From Escherichia coli (GTDB lineage Bacteria > Pseudomonadota > Gammaproteobacteria > Enterobacterales > Enterobacteriaceae), in the NCBI RefSeq assembly GCF_024502345.1, contig NZ_JALDNN010000003.1: DNA of 64,000 bases. One strand, 5' to 3'. Made by a program: the position numbers and the translations under genes. How positions within the stretch are numbered: position 1 is the first letter of the stretch; every line of letters starts with the position of its first letter. The notes beneath the pieces are model-generated. The model was not told the origin of the DNA and made no database searches. It saw only the letters and a program-made list of their open reading frames with translations. Positions 44,255 to 62,608 of this stretch are shown here, one piece after another.

Positions 44255-44439
44255 AAAAAACTCCTTCCAGGTATGTGAGCTTATTATATCAATACGGACT
44301 TTGCCCCAAACAACCCGACTCGAAATATTTTGGAAATTACTCTAATAACTAAAAATGGCACCCGGAAAATAGAATGAATTTATTTTAAGCTTGCCGAACA
44401 TGGCTGGCGGCGGAATTAAATTTGGGTAATGACTCCAAC

Positions 44440-44943
44440 TTATTGATAGTGTTTTATGTTCAGATAATGCCCGATGACTTTGTCATGCTGCTCCACCGAT
44501 TTTGAGAACGACAGCGACTTCCGTCCCAGCCGTGCCAGGTGCTGCCTCAGATTCAGGTTATGCCGCTCAATTCGCTGCGTATATCGCTTGCTGATTACGT
44601 GCAGCTTTCCCTTCAGGCGGGATTCATACAGCGGCCAGCCATCCGTCATCCATATCACCACGTCAAAGGGTGACAGCAGGCTCATAAGACGCCCCAGCGT
44701 CGCCATAGTGCGTTCACCGAATACGTGCGCAACAACCGTCTTCCGGAGCCTGTCATACGCGTAAAACAGCCAGCGCTGGCGCGATTTAGCCCCGACGTAT
44801 CCCCACTGTTCGTCCATTTCCGCGCAGACGATGACGTCACTGCCCGGCTGTATGCGCGAGGTTACCGACTGCGGCCTGAGTTTTTTAAATGGCGGAAAAT
44901 CGTGTTGAGGCCAACGCCCATAATGCGGGCGGTTGCCCGGCAT
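44440..44943 (-). CDS. insB: IS1 InsB (normally expressed as InsAB' by -1 frameshift)
   Basis: [27 protein letters not shown]...; differs at several residues from copy 2. Confidence 0.95.
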
Positions 44944-45137
44944 CCAACGCCATTCATGGCCATATCAATGATTTTCTGGTGCGTACCGGGTTGAGAAGCG
45001 GTGTAAGTGAACTGCAGTTGCCATGTTTTACGGCAGTGAGAGCAGAGATAGCGCTGATGTCCGGCAGTGCTTTTGCCGTTACGCACCACCCCGTCAGTAG
45101 CTGAACAGGAGGGACAGCTGATAGAAACAGAAGCCAC
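44862..45137 (-). CDS. insA: IS1 InsA
   Basis: [43 protein letters not shown]... Confidence 0.95.
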
Positions 45138-45290
45138 TGGAGCACCTCAAAAACACCATCATACACTAAATCAGTAAGTTGGCAGCATCACCGAAAATAA
45201 AATAGAGAGAGTTTTCAATCCGCATGACTTTAAAAAAGACAATTTTTAGAAATAAGCCGGATAAAAAAATAGCTTTATCCGGCACTCATA

Positions 45291-54259: not shown

Positions 54260-56689
54260 TCACGCCAGCAGGCGGACCATACGTTTCAACAGAGGCCTTA
54301 ACAACGCCGCCGTCCTCTCCCGGCATTCATCCACATGCCGGAACCCCGTCTTTTTCGAAGACTGGGGGCCGGATAACATCCGCAGCTCCCAGATGACTTC
54401 CCGTAAGGTTCCTTCGCGCTCCGGCGAAATACACCCGGCTAATGTCTCCAGAAAGCGTTTTCTTACGGCCCGGTAATACAGACGTTCTTCCGGTTGCTGT
54501 GACGAAATCCGCAGGTTACAGAGGGTCAGGACAGCGTCAAGAGTCCTTGCCTTCAGTTCGTCTCCCGTCCGGGCCAGATGTAGCTGTTGTTCTGTCTCCA
54601 GTTGCGTCGTTATCCACCCCCCCAGAGGGGTTTTGTTGTAGGTGTGCAGTGCCACACAGGCCGCAACACAACACCAGAAGCGCAGTTTCTGCCGCTGCCC
54701 CCGCAGTTTGCGGGCTACGAGCAAGCGATAATCGCTGTCGGTCAGGATCTTGAAACGGCGGCTGGCGAGCAGAGACGGCAGCGGCGTCTGGTCGTTAATG
54801 CCAAGACGTGAATAGGCCTGCCCGCGTTGAGCGAGTCGATGGTACACCGCACCTTTCCCCCGCGAAATTCGGACGGCGCCGTATCTAAGCAGGTACTGTG
54901 CCGCCGCCACAGGGGTAAACTCACCGTCAGACACACGCTGGCGTAATCCGTCATATTCATGCCAGATAATCCAGGATGCCGTGTCTTCATCGACCGTCAG
55001 CTCATCCTCTTCTTCGAATGCAACGATGTTCAGGCCTTCCCCGCTACTCATCAGACTGCGGGAAGCTCGCTCATCCTCCCGACCGTCAAAATAGGCTATT
55101 TCGGATGACGGATCGGACAGCCCGTCAAATGACGTCCCGATACGGCCTTCCGGCAACTTCATCCAGCGTGGTGCTGGCATCGGCGTGCGGGGTACTGGTT
55201 GCATAGCTGGCTCATCGTCGAGAAGATCCAGTGCCCCCCCTTCCCACACCTGGCGGTAAAGTTCAATGGCACGAAATGGGCGCGGGTTAAAGCAATGCAG
55301 TGACCAGAGAAAGTCGATATGCAGCACGTTAGCCTCCTGCACCAGTCGAAACTGCGGCTCCGACATGCGGCGGTTATGCGCGGTATCTTCGATCTCGCCT
55401 GAAAGTAACTTTTCATGCACCGCTGCGGCCCGCTGAGCCTCCACGTAATCGAGGCTGCAACAGATATGGAACAGTCTTTCGGTCAGGGACGACGAGAACA
55501 CATTGGGCTGAAGACGCACATACCCGCCCTCAAACACTTTGCGTCCGATATAATCCCGAAGGCTCCAGTCGTACTGAATTTTGGTCAGGAAACGCTGAAG
55601 GCGGTTGAGACCAGCCTGGTAGCCGTACTTCTCAGGGTCAGTGCGGAGTAAGGTTTCCATCGAGTGATCAATGCCGACGGCGCAGCATAGCGAGCATCCA
55701 TAGCGAGCGCCGCAGGCAGAAGACCGGACAGTGGATTTCTCCGGCGTCCAGATACATTCCCCGGTCGCGTCTTTGTAAAGCGTGGCGAGGCTGAAGTTGT
55801 CCGGCAAAAAGCTTGGCAGCGGAAATCGCGCCAGAGAACCACAGGCCATCAGAAATGACCAGATATCCTGTGCCCGCCACTCTTTCACCGGGTACAGTTC
55901 GCCGCCGTGCTCCGTGAGCGAGACGCTGTCCGCCTGCCCGCCCATTCTTAGGATGTTGTCTGCCCGACGGGCGCTCTCATCATCGCGGGAACCCAGCATC
56001 AGGCACACTTTGTTGCGGACAGAAGCAGGTGCATTTTTCAGATAACGGGCTTTGGCCTGGCGCAGTGGAGAACGCTTTAGATCTGTAGCGCATTGACGCG
56101 TAGAAGAATTTGTCCAGGTTGGAAGTCCACGCCCGGTCAGAATGCGTCCGACCCAGCTCTGGGTCATGGACGGGCGGGCCACAAGGACGGTCAAAGGCAG
56201 TTCTTGTTCGGCAATAAAGGCTCTGAGCTGGCTGAGAACCTGCGTGGCCTGATGATGCATCTCAGGGTTTTCAATCAGGGTGTCAGACATCTGAATGAAG
56301 TGGTGCTGGCTGACGTTCGACCCGTTTCGTACTGCACGGATCAAGGCCATAAGGAACAAGTGCAGTAGCGAGTGAGAGTCTTTCCCGCCGCTGTAGCCGA
56401 CGCACATGGTCCAGCCTTCGGTAATCGCATGATAAATGGCACTGGTTGCCGTCGTCACGCGCGAAGCGAGACTGATCGGCTCACCGGCATCAGTATAATT
56501 CAGATCCGCATCGGTCTTCAGTGTCTGCCAGACATCGCCCCATTTATCCTGCGTCAGAATGGCAGCGTTAGCCGCCTCAGAAAATTGAATTTCTGAGGGT
56601 AATTCAAGGAATGTTTCTTTCATTTCGATATACATATTATTTCCTGAATTTGGCTTTCGCTGTATTGTCGCGATATTTATTAAATCCAT
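54260..56689 (-). CDS. large PP-loop ATP-pyrophosphatase (PAPS-reductase / DndC-like) domain protein, 809 aa
   Basis: PP-loop GYSGGKDS near residue 100; Cys cluster ACGARYGCSLCCAVG; long C-terminal extension of unknown function. Confidence 0.75.
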   Translation of the reverse strand: MDLINIATIQRKPNSGNNMYIEMKETFLELPSEIQFSEAANAAILTQDKWGDVWQTLKTDADLNYTDAGEPISLASRVTTATSAIYHAITEGWTMCVGYSGGKDSHSLLHLFLMALIRAVRNGSNVSQHHFIQMSDTLIENPEMHHQATQVLSQLRAFIAEQELPLTVLVARPSMTQSWVGRILTGRGLPTWTNSSTRQCATDLKRSPLRQAKARYLKNAPASVRNKVCLMLGSRDDESARRADNILRMGGQADSVSLTEHGGELYPVKEWRAQDIWSFLMACGSLARFPLPSFLPDNFSLATLYKDATGECIWTPEKSTVRSSACGARYGCSLCCAVGIDHSMETLLRTDPEKYGYQAGLNRLQRFLTKIQYDWSLRDYIGRKVFEGGYVRLQPNVFSSSLTERLFHICCSLDYVEAQRAAAVHEKLLSGEIEDTAHNRRMSEPQFRLVQEANVLHIDFLWSLHCFNPRPFRAIELYRQVWEGGALDLLDDEPAMQPVPRTPMPAPRWMKLPEGRIGTSFDGLSDPSSEIAYFDGREDERASRSLMSSGEGLNIVAFEEEDELTVDEDTASWIIWHEYDGLRQRVSDGEFTPVAAAQYLLRYGAVRISRGKGAVYHRLAQRGQAYSRLGINDQTPLPSLLASRRFKILTDSDYRLLVARKLRGQRQKLRFWCCVAACVALHTYNKTPLGGWITTQLETEQQLHLARTGDELKARTLDAVLTLCNLRISSQQPEERLYYRAVRKRFLETLAGCISPEREGTLREVIWELRMLSGPQSSKKTGFRHVDECRERTAALLRPLLKRMVRLLA

Positions 56690-59491: not shown

Positions 59492-60653
59492 CTACTCCCA
59501 GCGATAAGGGGTAAAATAGTCCTCGTTAACAGCAAGAAATTCGGTCAGGGAATGCATCGCCTTCGTGTCATATGCCGTCACAATAAAACGGTATCCGTCC
59601 ACCGTTTCGATGTAGCTGATCCCCCGTGGCGTGCAACTGGATTTCACAACTTCCGCCGTCATCATAAACTGCCCTTGCGGGAATTCCGGTGACAGGTAGA
59701 TAAAGCCAGTGGTGGCTGATGACGGGTTGGCATTCATCAGCACGCTGTTAAATTGCTTTCCGTGCCGCGCCGGAATCAACGCGCTCCCCGCTGTCGCCTG
59801 AGTCATCAACTGGCGGATCAGGGTTTCCTCTTTATCTGAGCTGTAGGCGCGAACATCATTTTCAGCCCCGGAGCGTGAGTAGACGCCGACATGAGCAAGA
59901 CGTCGGTACTCGTTACGCATATAGGCATGACAGGATGCACCGGCTCGCCCCTGAAGAGTGACGCCAAAGTCTTCACATAACATCAGTACCTGGCGCAGGT
60001 TTTTGTCATAGACCGTGGCAGAGAGCGCCAGGTTATAGCTGATGAATGTCAGCTCAAAAACCCGGGTATGTGCGTCACTAAGGTGTGCCTCCATGCGGAT
60101 CACTGGTTTCTCCGTCATTGGAAACGGCGTACCGGCCAAGCAGTACGAGGTAACATCGCTAAAACACTCGTCGATCACACTGGCAATGACCGTATCGGCG
60201 TCAATGACAGCCGGAGCTGGAACATAAATCTGAAACTGTCCTTCAGTGCCCGGTTGGATCAGGACGGGGTATAGACGCGGGGAATTGAGTTGTTCGCAGT
60301 CGGCATTGATCAGTTCTGTCCAACCGGGTTTTCCGGTGGGAGCATCAAGGCGAAGACCCAGGTTATCGCAGAAGTCGACGATCTGGCGGGAGTGCTCCAC
60401 CATCACTGCCCCGGAGAGTGTCAGACCGTGCGTAACCATCTGCATCTCACTCGTCCGGGTCTGGGAGTTCTGGGACCAGGGCTGTAATGAAAGCGTCGTC
60501 CGACTTAAGGAGGGAATGATGGTTTCATTCAGAGGTTCAATAAGCTGGCAATGCGCATACAGCCGGGTGGCGAGGAAGTCAAATATGAAGCTTGCCTGTT
60601 GTTTTGTGCTGGCCTGAATATAAAACATCGCATCCATGCCTGAATCCCGGGAT
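59492..60653 (-). pseudogene. 395-codon gene of unknown function split after codon 7 by IS1; first 5 codons and start of the TSD remain at 61436-61450
   Basis: Removing IS1 and one TSD copy restores ATG AAA CTT TTC GGT ATT TCA TCC CGG... (MKLFGISSRDSGMDAMFYIQ...); ORF-track start MAASPG is encoded by the IS1 terminus. Confidence 0.7.
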
Positions 60654-60717
60654 GAAATACCGGGTGATGCTGCCAACTTACTGATTTAGTGTATGATGGT
60701 GTTTTTGAGGTGCTCCA

Positions 60718-60993
60718 GTGGCTTCTGTTTCTATCAGCTGTCCCTCCTGTTCAGCTACTGACGGGGTGGTGCGTAACGGCAAAAGCACCGCCGGACATCA
60801 GCGCTATCTCTGCTCTCACTGCCGTAAAACATGGCAACTGCAGTTCACTTACACCGCTTCTCAACCCGGTACGCACCAGAAAATCATTGATATGGCCATG
60901 AATGGCGTTGGATGCCGGGCAACAGCCCGCATTATGGGCGTTGGCCTCAACACGATTTTACGTCACTTAAAAAACTCAGGCCGCAGTCGGTAA
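60718..60993 (+). CDS. insA: IS1 InsA
   Basis: Near-identical to copy 1 InsA. Confidence 0.95.
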
Positions 60994-61415
60994 CCTCGCG
61001 CATACAGCCGGGCAGTGACGTCATCGTCTGCGCGGAAATGGACGAACAGTGGGGATACGTCGGGGCTAAATCGCGCCAGCGCTGGCTGTTTTACGCGTAT
61101 GACAGGCTCCGGAAGACGGTTGTTGCGCACGTATTCGGTGAACGCACTATGGCGACGCTGGGGCGTCTTATGAGCCTGCTGTCACCCTTTGACGTGGTGA
61201 TATGGATGACGGATGGCTGGCCGCTGTATGAATCCCGCCTGAAGGGAAAGCTGCACGTAATCAGCAAGCGATATACGCAGCGAATTGAGCGGCATAACCT
61301 GAATCTGAGGCAGCACCTGGCACGGCTGGGACGGAAGTCGCTGTCGTTCTCAAAATCGGTGGAGCTGCATGACAAAGTCATCGGGCATTATCTGAACATA
61401 AAACACTATCAATAA
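60912..61415 (+). CDS. insB: IS1 InsB
   Basis: [25 protein letters not shown]... Confidence 0.95.
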
Positions 61416-61458
61416 GTTGGAGTCATTACCGAAATACCGAAAAGTTTCATTTTTTACC

Positions 61459-61755
61459 TTAATGGATGAGCGATTTATAATCATGCGCCGACAGGTGGAC
61501 GTTATGTACGCCATCGTTCCACTCAAAGAATAGCCGATATTTTGAATTAACTCGAATGGAAGAATACCGGTTTGCGGTCATTCTTAAGCGTTCGTACCGC
61601 AAACTACCAGATAACAATTCGCGTTCGTTTTTAACATTATTTAACGTTTCCAGTCTGCATGAAATCGCATTAATCAGTTCAGCAGGAATGCCTGCCGTGG
61701 ATTTTCCATTACGGAAAAACTTTTCCAATCGCCTGTCTTTAAATGAATGGATCAT
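61459..61755 (-). CDS. HigB-like toxin (plasmid-maintenance killer protein family, RelE/ParE fold)
   Basis: [38 protein letters not shown]...SIRVNSKYRLFFEWNDGVHNVHLSAHDY aligns with Rts1 HigB pattern (MIKSFKHKGLKLLFEKG...P...RL...SITVRANWRITF...DY). Confidence 0.65.
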   Translation of the reverse strand: MIHSFKDRRLEKFFRNGKSTAGIPAELINAISCRLETLNNVKNERELLSGSLRYERLRMTANRYSSIRVNSKYRLFFEWNDGVHNVHLSAHDYKSLIH

Positions 61756-61818
61756 ATTTTCCTCCGTAACGAAATGAGTTTAAATAAATAAGAATTAAAA
61801 AAGCCTAAATCTAATTTA

Positions 61819-62286
61819 TTACATCCCGAGGATTCTGGCTGCGACCGTCAGTTGTTTATCACTTAATGGAAATTTGCGTGATAACGTCGACTTCAGGCTG
61901 TTCAAAAAACTGTTCTCGCCGTCTTGCTGCGTGATGGCGTCCACCAGTTCTTGGTGGTTCTGACACCAGAGGTTGAACGCGGAAGTCTTTGATTGAACAG
62001 CACGTTGACGCTCTGCTGCCTGAGCGGCTGAGATCTTGCGAGCAGCTTCTGGGTATATGCGATACAGTGCAGTCAGGGTGTAACAGGTACGGGTAGTGAC
62101 CAGGCTATAGCCAGTGGCATTACAGGCAATACAGCGGCTCTTATAAAAGTGATTGCGTTCGCCACGTCCATTGCATTTATTGCAAGTAACACGGTAAATA
62201 TATTCCCCGGTGCCTTTTACTGAATCAATACACTTAATCTTAGCGTTATCGATTGCCATTCCGCTACGGTCAAAGTATTTATCCAT
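61819..62286 (-). CDS. zinc-finger protein (155 aa), CxxC-x-GxG repeats
   Basis: CNKCNGRGE...CIACNATGY DnaJ-type zinc-finger-like spacing. Confidence 0.5.
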   Translation of the reverse strand: MDKYFDRSGMAIDNAKIKCIDSVKGTGEYIYRVTCNKCNGRGERNHFYKSRCIACNATGYSLVTTRTCYTLTALYRIYPEAARKISAAQAAERQRAVQSKTSAFNLWCQNHQELVDAITQQDGENSFLNSLKSTLSRKFPLSDKQLTVAARILGM

Positions 62287-62608
62287 TTTTGATTCCTCAG
62301 GTTTGGTCTGAAGTAATAATGACAGATTGGCCTCGCTGGCTAATAACCTGAACGAACGTTTTTTGAAAATAAATCAGGAAGGATGATTGAGATGATTTAT
62401 ATATGCAGGATTCAATTTTAATGGAGGGTATTTTCAGAATTATCTGTTTACAAAAAACGAAACAAATCCTAATGAGGCATTTATTGCATCACAATAAAAG
62501 TGATTGCTTTTCACTCATTTGAGTAGCGATGCTTAAGTATTTATCCGTTTTAAGGTATAACAGCAGCGTGATACGACTCAGGGAATGCCTGTCCGTCACC
62601 TTAATGAT

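Follow-up and report, generated by a model that had tools for sequence, protein, structure and literature searches.

The locus described here raises the question of what a gene for a HigB-like toxin is doing when the gene translated directly after it does not encode a HigA antitoxin. It lies near the end of a 64,000-nucleotide stretch of Escherichia coli DNA (assembly GCF_024502345.1, contig NZ_JALDNN010000003.1), which is called the window in the following. A preliminary description had read it as a two-gene, non-canonical toxin-partner or toxin-effector module, in which a gene for a 98-residue HigB-like protein was coupled to a large partner gene split by the insertion sequence IS1. The reading which we prefer, and which we hold tentatively, is that both genes belong to a conserved three-gene operon of IncHI plasmids, in which a gene for a zinc-finger protein precedes them. 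This triplet would be a non-canonical HigB-family locus in which the partner is accessory and dispensable. Among the observations behind this reading are the conservation of the triplet between distant lineages and the repeated natural loss of the partner with the toxin-like gene left intact.

The 98-residue open reading frame (ORF), which ends in TAA, scored as a member of the HigB/RelE family, as had been proposed. It matched PF05015 (HigB-like_toxin) with an E value of 3.8e-16, residues 4-90 aligning to positions 2-90 of the 91 positions of the model, and, with an E value of 1.8e-18, phrog_3066 ('toxin of TA system', where TA stands for toxin-antitoxin). Residues 1-94 also aligned to the solved HigB of Proteus vulgaris (chains 4mct_B and 4ypb) with E values of 3e-5 to 7e-5. 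Both comparisons place the protein in the HigB family. The critical residues of P. vulgaris HigB are His54, Asp90, Tyr91 and His92 (PMC5027501). The residues aligned with them were Glu55, Asp92, Tyr93 and Lys94, so that two of the four (Asp and Tyr) were kept and both His were replaced. Tyr93 was invariant, whereas one lineage had Lys for Glu55 and one had Asn for Asp92. Because the active sites of RelE-family proteins vary among members, these residues neither prove nor exclude RNase activity. When compared with five other lineages, the gene had a ratio of nonsynonymous to synonymous substitutions (dN/dS) of 0.03-0.18, indicating strong purifying selection, and it is therefore not a decaying remnant. 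Between IncHI1 and IncHI2 plasmids the HigB-like protein was 90% identical in amino acid sequence, and its two neighbours were 65% and 62-63% identical. Judged by these values, it is the most strongly selected member of the triplet.

The toxin-like gene and the partner gene are joined by the sequence TAA-GGTAAAAA-ATG, with the partner ATG at 61450-61448, and an AAGG run resembling a Shine-Dalgarno (SD) sequence overlaps the toxin stop codon (Table 1). This 8-nucleotide junction was seen as first described. The partner gene is interrupted after its nucleotide 20, within codon 7, by an element with all the features of IS1, namely a length of 768 bp, terminal inverted repeats, ORFs for InsA and InsB, and a 9-bp target duplication. 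The duplication, GAAATACCG, is perfect and is found at 60654-60662 and 61431-61439; since it is perfect on both sides, the insertion was a simple transposition, and the earlier account of a simple insertion into codons 6-7 was correct. Removal of IS1 and one repeat copy in silico gave a gene ending at 59492 and identical to WP_000765095.1 of plasmid pHCM1. Its length is 393 codons plus stop and not 395 codons, as had been stated. The uninterrupted locus of pHCM1 (Salmonella Typhi CT18, NC_003384.1, 16895-18912) was 99.9% identical to that of the window. Its annotation gives the first and third products as hypothetical, the third under WP_000765095.1, and the second, WP_000581856.1, as a 'type II toxin-antitoxin system RelE/ParE family toxin'. 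From this match, the locus is part of the IncHI1 plasmid backbone. The same IS1 allele was found neither in PLSDB nor in 5,426 complete E. coli genomes.

Table 1. Positions in the window of the three genes, of the insertion and of the segments of the partner
Feature	Position	Strand	Remarks
Zinc-finger protein gene	61819..62286	-	155 amino acids; first gene of the conserved triplet
Spacer between zinc-finger and toxin-like genes	61756..61818	-	63 nucleotides, A/T-rich; carries the SD sequence of the toxin-like gene (ACGGAGGAA)
HigB-like (RelE-superfamily) gene	61459..61755	-	98 amino acids, intact; identical to WP_000581856.1
Toxin-partner junction	61451..61458	-	8 nucleotides, GGTAAAAA
Partner gene, first 20 nucleotides	61431..61450	-	ATGAAACTTTTCGGTATTTC; MKLFGI plus 2 nucleotides; contains the 61431-61439 copy of the target-site duplication
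IS1	60663..61430	+	768 bp, insA/insB; antisense to the operon
Partner gene, remainder	59492..60662	-	codons 7-393 plus stop; opens with the second 9-bp copy (60654-60662)
Partner, core of internal repeat 1	60323..60526	-	residues 50-117
Partner, core of internal repeat 2	59930..60133	-	residues 181-248
Partner, C-terminal domain	59495..59839	-	residues 279-393; helix, beta-barrel, two helices

The preliminary description had also noted an in-frame ATG in the end of IS1 (MAASPG...) and had considered a chimeric product driven by the element. The start codon in question is a TTG at 60676, and a stop codon lies four codons upstream of it. No outward promoter-like site was found, and a terminator-like hairpin is located within IS1 on the operon strand. 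For these reasons a chimeric product is unlikely, and this candidate was rejected. The partner gene of the window is a null allele made by a simple insertion of IS1.

Four further alleles were inspected in which the partner was destroyed or truncated and the toxin ORF was intact. In pYLMB165 the partner is interrupted by ISVsa5 after nucleotide 90, and the toxin gene is identical to the wild type, as it is in the window. The IncHI2 plasmid pS77-CTXM55-278k carries an IS21 element near partner codon 250, and pIncHI2-1502264 carries IS903B near partner codon 158 with the rest of the gene deleted; the toxin of both is wild type. In p99COLEC-1, ISApl1 is located two bases past the toxin stop codon, the whole partner is gone, and the toxin has the substitution H3Y. 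The search with IncHI2 DNA points to three additional alleles with an altered partner: a second insertion of IS903B, one truncated at the 5' end and one of which a 3' fragment is left.

Records with incomplete genes were also counted. With tblastn the partner matched 1304 records, 1260 of which were covered to at least 80% in one place, and the zinc-finger gene matched 1851 records, 1849 of them covered to that extent. When IncHI2 DNA was used as the query, the toxin gene (297 nucleotides) matched 1083 records and the partner gene (1182 nucleotides) 1030, with at least 80% coverage in one place in 1081 and 990 records, respectively. The partner was thus incomplete in 40 of 1030 IncHI2 records and the toxin gene in 2 of 1083, which makes disruption about 5-fold commoner per nucleotide in the partner. 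Of the two truncated toxin genes one was inspected, and there the partner had been removed too. This asymmetry is the opposite of what is expected for an essential antitoxin. If the partner alone neutralised an expressed toxin, its loss beside an intact toxin gene should be very rare, and the antidote role that had been implied for it is therefore doubtful.

For the comparison of gene order, intact loci were taken from an IncHI1-related lineage (partner identity 87-88%), from IncHI2 (62-63%) and from four more lineages with partner identities of 56, 51, 39 and 31%. The order in every lineage examined was zinc-finger protein (155-169 amino acids), HigB-like protein (98 amino acids) and partner (391-396 amino acids). 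The distance from toxin stop to partner start was 8, 8, 9, 9, 10 and 15 nucleotides in the six lineages, and a purine-rich, SD-like run was present at or near the toxin stop codon in all six despite saturated synonymous sites. The genes flanking the triplet differed by lineage; a gene for a large immunoglobulin (Ig)-like (Big_3) protein was found on the left in some and on the right in another. When the six loci were translated in all six frames and compared, no ORF of at least 40 amino acids was conserved in all of them beyond the three genes. A conventional small antitoxin is therefore not hidden in or beside the pair, and this candidate was rejected. The earlier account would have been refuted by such an antitoxin in intact homologous loci, or by a partner that abuts the toxin gene by chance; in these loci, down to 31% partner identity, neither was the case. 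Of the proposed two-gene architecture, the pairing of toxin and partner was conserved, but the unit has three genes, the zinc-finger gene having been overlooked. The search covered 72,556 plasmid records, about 1,300 of which carried the triplet, and all carriers were of the IncHI type.

Retention of a short gap and of an SD sequence over the stop codon at saturated synonymous sites would not be expected if the genes were unrelated neighbours, nor would the rearrangement of flanking genes around an unchanged triplet. In the six lineages, moreover, toxins of this subclade and partners of this family were separated only by damage from insertion sequences. We therefore consider it unlikely that the HigB-like protein is an orphan or domesticated RelE-fold protein with a plasmid function of its own, its adjacency to the partner resulting from inheritance of the IncHI backbone as a block. 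This explanation agrees with the finding that every carrier is an IncHI-type plasmid and with the replacement of the two His that are critical in P. vulgaris HigB (PMC5027501). It would also account for the loss of the partner without consequence for the toxin gene, and for the standalone copies of the partner's C-terminal domain in other mobile elements, which do not adjoin a RelE-like gene.

The known system closest in layout is higBA, as represented by HigB-HigA of P. vulgaris Rts1, in which a PF05015 toxin is paired with a HigA antitoxin of the XRE-HTH type (helix-turn-helix, HTH; TIGR02607). The locus resembles higBA in that its toxin is a full-length PF05015 protein that aligns with P. 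vulgaris HigB, and in that the toxin gene comes first, with the partner within 8 nucleotides in the window, the same as in IncP higBA. The canonical IncP higBA, whose toxin was 36% identical, served as a positive control for HigA detection; its HigA was found 8 nucleotides downstream of the toxin gene (TIGR02607, 3.5e-23). The locus differs from higBA in that the downstream protein, at 393 amino acids, has neither an HTH nor any similarity to HigA, which has about 100 amino acids. It differs further in that the partner is dispensable in nature, expression of the locus being presumed, where an antitoxin would be essential, in the retention of two of the four critical residues of P. vulgaris HigB, and in the presence of an additional conserved gene upstream. 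As judged from these comparisons the locus is not a higBA module, since HigA is missing and the partner does not behave as an essential antitoxin would, but it is still a HigB-family gene in a higBA layout.

The closest outgroup in the plasmid collection was a HigB-like clade of Klebsiella IncFIB/IncHI1B megaplasmids (for example pKPN528-1, WP_004181835.1), which was 41-44% identical and had the same MIHSF...SSIRVxSKYRLxFxW motifs. This clade was present on about 550 or more IncFIB/IncHI1B plasmids (for example locus L020, 3501-4560, from pKPN528-1; also L021). As in the IncHI triplet, a protein other than HigA is encoded within 11 nucleotides downstream of the toxin-like gene. The Klebsiella loci differ in that this is an acidic protein of 105-111 amino acids, followed by a protein of about 125 amino acids with a hydrophobic N-terminus and annotated as hypothetical, and in that there is no upstream zinc-finger gene, a YuiA-family homologue being located elsewhere on those plasmids. 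The 105-residue protein matched no Pfam or NCBIfam family. The 105-residue and 129-residue proteins of the sister clade were considered as relatives of parts of the 393-residue partner, and a 392-residue protein adjoining YuiA was considered as a partner homologue; the former had no similarity to the partner and the latter was unrelated. Because the sister clade also has a protein other than HigA in this position, partner swapping occurs in the clade. By the same comparison, the HigB subclade on IncHI-type plasmids has swapped HigA for unrelated partners and kept the gene layout.

Partner swapping of this kind would also fit a non-canonical type II TA system of two genes, in which the partner is a large antitoxin that does not bind DNA and neutralises a HigB-like RNase by binding it, the natural knock-outs surviving because the operon is nearly silent or the toxin weak. 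The partner has the position, spacing and coupling of higA, the 8-nucleotide gap being shared with canonical IncP higBA, and it co-occurs with the toxin in every intact locus. It also evolves faster than the toxin, as is usual for antitoxins. The partner lacks, however, a DNA-binding domain for autoregulation, five inspected alleles have lost or truncated it with the toxin ORF intact (three more being listed), and disruptions per nucleotide are about 5-fold more frequent in it than in the toxin gene. With this evidence on both sides, we regard the partner as an antitoxin of this type as somewhat unlikely.

The first gene of the triplet encodes a protein with two CxxCxGxG motifs, all four Cys of which were invariant. 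The DnaJ_CXXCXGXG domain, the central zinc-finger domain of DnaJ, was matched in four of five members of the family at E values of at most 1e-3, and there were weak matches to TIGR02349 DnaJ and to anti-TRAP. The C-terminal half is helical and ends in a conserved LSxKQxxVAAKILG motif. The dN/dS of the gene was 0.10-0.12, indicating purifying selection. In each of the six lineages it precedes the toxin gene, the spacer varying between 29 and 63 nucleotides, with 63 nucleotides in the window. Neither a terminator-like nor a promoter-like site was found in this spacer on the operon strand. Because no terminator-like site separates the zinc-finger and toxin genes, and judging from the spacing of the genes, transcription of the triplet as one operon is likely. 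A motif, TTATTAGCC-N10-12-TCTGTCAT(T/G)AT, was shared upstream of the zinc-finger gene by four of the six lineages (loci L001, L018, L004 and L003), in a region where divergence is otherwise saturated. It lies 28-60 nucleotides before the zinc-finger start (3955-3987 in L001, and about 62314-62346 in the window by transfer from L001), where it may serve the triplet as promoter or operator.

Homologues of the zinc-finger protein with 28% identity, named 'YuiA family protein', were found on Klebsiella plasmids directly upstream of a gene for an Ig-like protein, in the absence of any toxin gene in the vicinity; the zinc-finger family is therefore independent of a toxin. Homologues in phages were too few to be informative. 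MqsR-MqsA is a system in which a RelE-fold toxin is neutralised by a zinc-binding antitoxin (PMC2791442). The triplet is similar to it in that a RelE-superfamily gene stands beside a gene for a small protein with a four-Cys zinc site followed by a helical domain. It differs in the DnaJ-type CxxCxGxG site, in the absence of an XRE-HTH domain, no HTH family of Pfam having been matched, in the position of the zinc-finger gene as the first gene, which reverses the order, and in the absence of homology to MqsA; with an hhalign probability of 0.6%, the zinc-finger protein was rejected as an MqsA homologue. The parallel is thus one of analogy only. The TAC (toxin-antitoxin-chaperone) system of Mycobacterium, HigB-HigA-SecB-like, is a three-gene unit of a HigB-family toxin, a HigA antitoxin and a SecB-like chaperone. 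The IncHI locus likewise has a HigB-family toxin in a three-gene unit, but neither HigA nor a SecB-like chaperone.

The reconstructed partner matched no Pfam family even at E values up to 10 and no family of NCBIfam, PADLOC-DB or PHROGs, and no HTH was detected in it with Pfam or NCBIfam, in agreement with the first account. No match to PDB sequences was obtained with either the single sequence or the profile; deaminases, the sole PDB profile matches at E values of about 0.5, were rejected as noise. In an HMMER scan of 1.84 billion representative proteins 21 matches were obtained, nearly all of them fragments of the same family, with one full-length relative of 31% identity. A word-index search gave 17 matches. 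The name 'flavin reductase', which RefSeq gives the partner in many records, had no support from profiles or fold. For IncHI2, RefSeq opens the partner at an internal Met13 (381 amino acids), under the name 'flavin reductase (family protein)'. The N-terminus MKL[FY] was conserved in all lineages, IncHI2 included, and in the IncHI2 plasmid pSTm-A54650 (locus L018, 4326-4361) the MKLF start is present 8 nucleotides after the toxin stop codon. The partner gene had a dN/dS of 0.13-0.19, again indicating purifying selection.

The partner contains an internal duplication. Its residues 50-117 could be aligned to residues 181-248, with a Smith-Waterman score of 79 compared with 25.8 +/- 4.4 for shuffled sequences, and the two halves matched each other in hhalign with a probability of 96% and an E value of 6e-9. 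In an AlphaFold2 model, the N-terminal 240 residues form repeated strand-strand-helix units with per-residue confidence (predicted local distance difference test, pLDDT) of about 70-89. The C-terminal 115 residues were the most conserved part of the protein (PARHG..FNG..TTGF..GQF..E..ET.DG.RF). According to the prediction, two tandem alpha/beta repeats and a beta-barrel domain make up the partner, and the barrel, although confidently modelled, had no close solved relative. Standalone homologues of the C-terminal domain, 118-140 amino acids long, occurred in metagenomes and on a Vibrio vulnificus contig. They were checked for adjoining RelE-like toxins, and this was not the case. One of them (locus L015, 762-1184) stands beside genes for a 991-residue phosphoadenosine phosphosulfate (PAPS)-reductase protein and a DndB-like protein, and that of V. 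vulnificus (locus L017, 4001-4375) is located among DUF2786/DUF7168 genes and an ART-PolyVal gene. Both are in gene arrays typical of conjugative elements. In pHCM1, a 791-residue PAPS-reductase family gene lies about 3 kb downstream of the partner, and it probably corresponds to the 809-residue ORF at 54260-56689 of the window.

A large, multi-domain partner with a strongly conserved set of polar motifs in its barrel domain might be more than an antidote. The HigB-like RNase, which would target the ribosome, could be inert or mis-targeted when alone and be licensed or directed by the partner, with its repeat module of a type not described before and its new beta-barrel domain, so that loss of the partner would turn it off and not unleash it; an invading phage, a competing or rival plasmid, or entry into a new host could be the trigger. 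Tolerated and comparatively frequent loss is what would be expected of an activating or costly component, and the standalone barrel homologues lie beside PAPS-reductase/DndB-like and ART-PolyVal genes in arrays of conjugative elements. Nevertheless, we consider this quite improbable. No sensor, NTPase or enzyme domain was recognised in the partner, and all three proteins of the triplet matched 0 families of PADLOC-DB 2.0 at E values up to 1. We know of no precedent for a HigB-family RNase that needs an activator. If it were true, it would invert the logic of TA systems and add a new two-part effector of IncHI plasmids.

In the reading that we prefer, that of a three-gene operon with a dispensable partner, the HigB-like protein would, by homology, most likely share with HigB and RelE the binding of ribosome or RNA. 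The partner would most likely act with or on the HigB-like protein, because it occupies the HigA position and is translated in step with it. It would be an accessory part, dispensable for viability, and not an indispensable antidote. Since its loss is tolerated with the toxin-like gene kept, any toxicity would have to be contained otherwise. Candidates for this containment are the zinc-finger protein, by analogy with MqsA, low or silenced expression, or an intrinsically weak activity.

Several points weigh against this reading. The link between zinc-finger and toxin genes may be one of synteny only, as zinc-finger homologues occur without a toxin nearby. Because every carrier comes from one plasmid lineage, the IncHI type, the adjacency of the genes is partly inherited and not independently selected. 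The argument from the knock-outs assumes that the toxin-like gene is expressed, and genes of the IncHI backbone may be silenced under many conditions. Two of the five knock-outs keep 158-250 N-terminal residues of the partner, which might still function. The only complete deletion of the partner, that of p99COLEC-1 (locus L013, 3032-3328), is accompanied by the H3Y substitution in the toxin, which could be compensatory or neutral; residue 3 is His in five of six lineages and Cys in the sixth. The database records that were counted are not independent lineages, some partial matches may be assembly artefacts, and the count of toxin disruptions is based on two records only.

Some further features of the region were recorded. 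In all six lineages the G+C content of the toxin-like gene was 39-43% and that of the partner 47-56%; this gap may be due to amino acid composition or to separate origins of the genes. On the plus strand, a sigma-70-like site (TTTACC-17-TATAAT, 10/12) at 61453-61481, over the toxin-partner junction, was the best in the region, and a hairpin with a T-run at 61682-61705, about 200 nucleotides downstream of it, would yield an antisense RNA over the toxin gene. An antisense RNA antitoxin was rejected as weak, as the -35 element and the hairpin were not conserved in distant loci, and as the Asp-Tyr-Lys codons of the toxin gene dictate the -10 element. A second copy of IS1, at 44425-45192 of the window, is inverted relative to the copy in the partner and differs from it at 6 of 768 positions. 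It has no 9-bp direct repeat, its flanks being TTAAATTTG on one side and GAAAATAAA on the other, and it probably marks a rearrangement or the edge of an acquired region.

A search of the literature by protein accessions and by the topics IncHI, R27, HigB and TraDIS (transposon-directed insertion-site sequencing) gave nothing on the locus. In the databases the small gene is labelled as a generic type II toxin, and the large gene as hypothetical or, wrongly, as a flavin reductase. Both the family of the partner and the beta-barrel domain in it are new, and the pattern of natural knock-outs is unusual. Toxins lacking assigned partners are common in genome surveys, which tempers the interest of the locus. 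IncHI1 and IncHI2 plasmids are, on the other hand, major carriers of resistance to multiple drugs, to colistin (mcr) and to tigecycline (tet(X4)). Counting the pair as an addiction module would mislead inferences on the stability of these plasmids, because their natural genetics show the supposed antidote to be expendable. The five natural knock-out alleles provide ready experimental material, and the locus is a clean test case for how a RelE-fold protein is controlled without an antitoxin of the HigA type.

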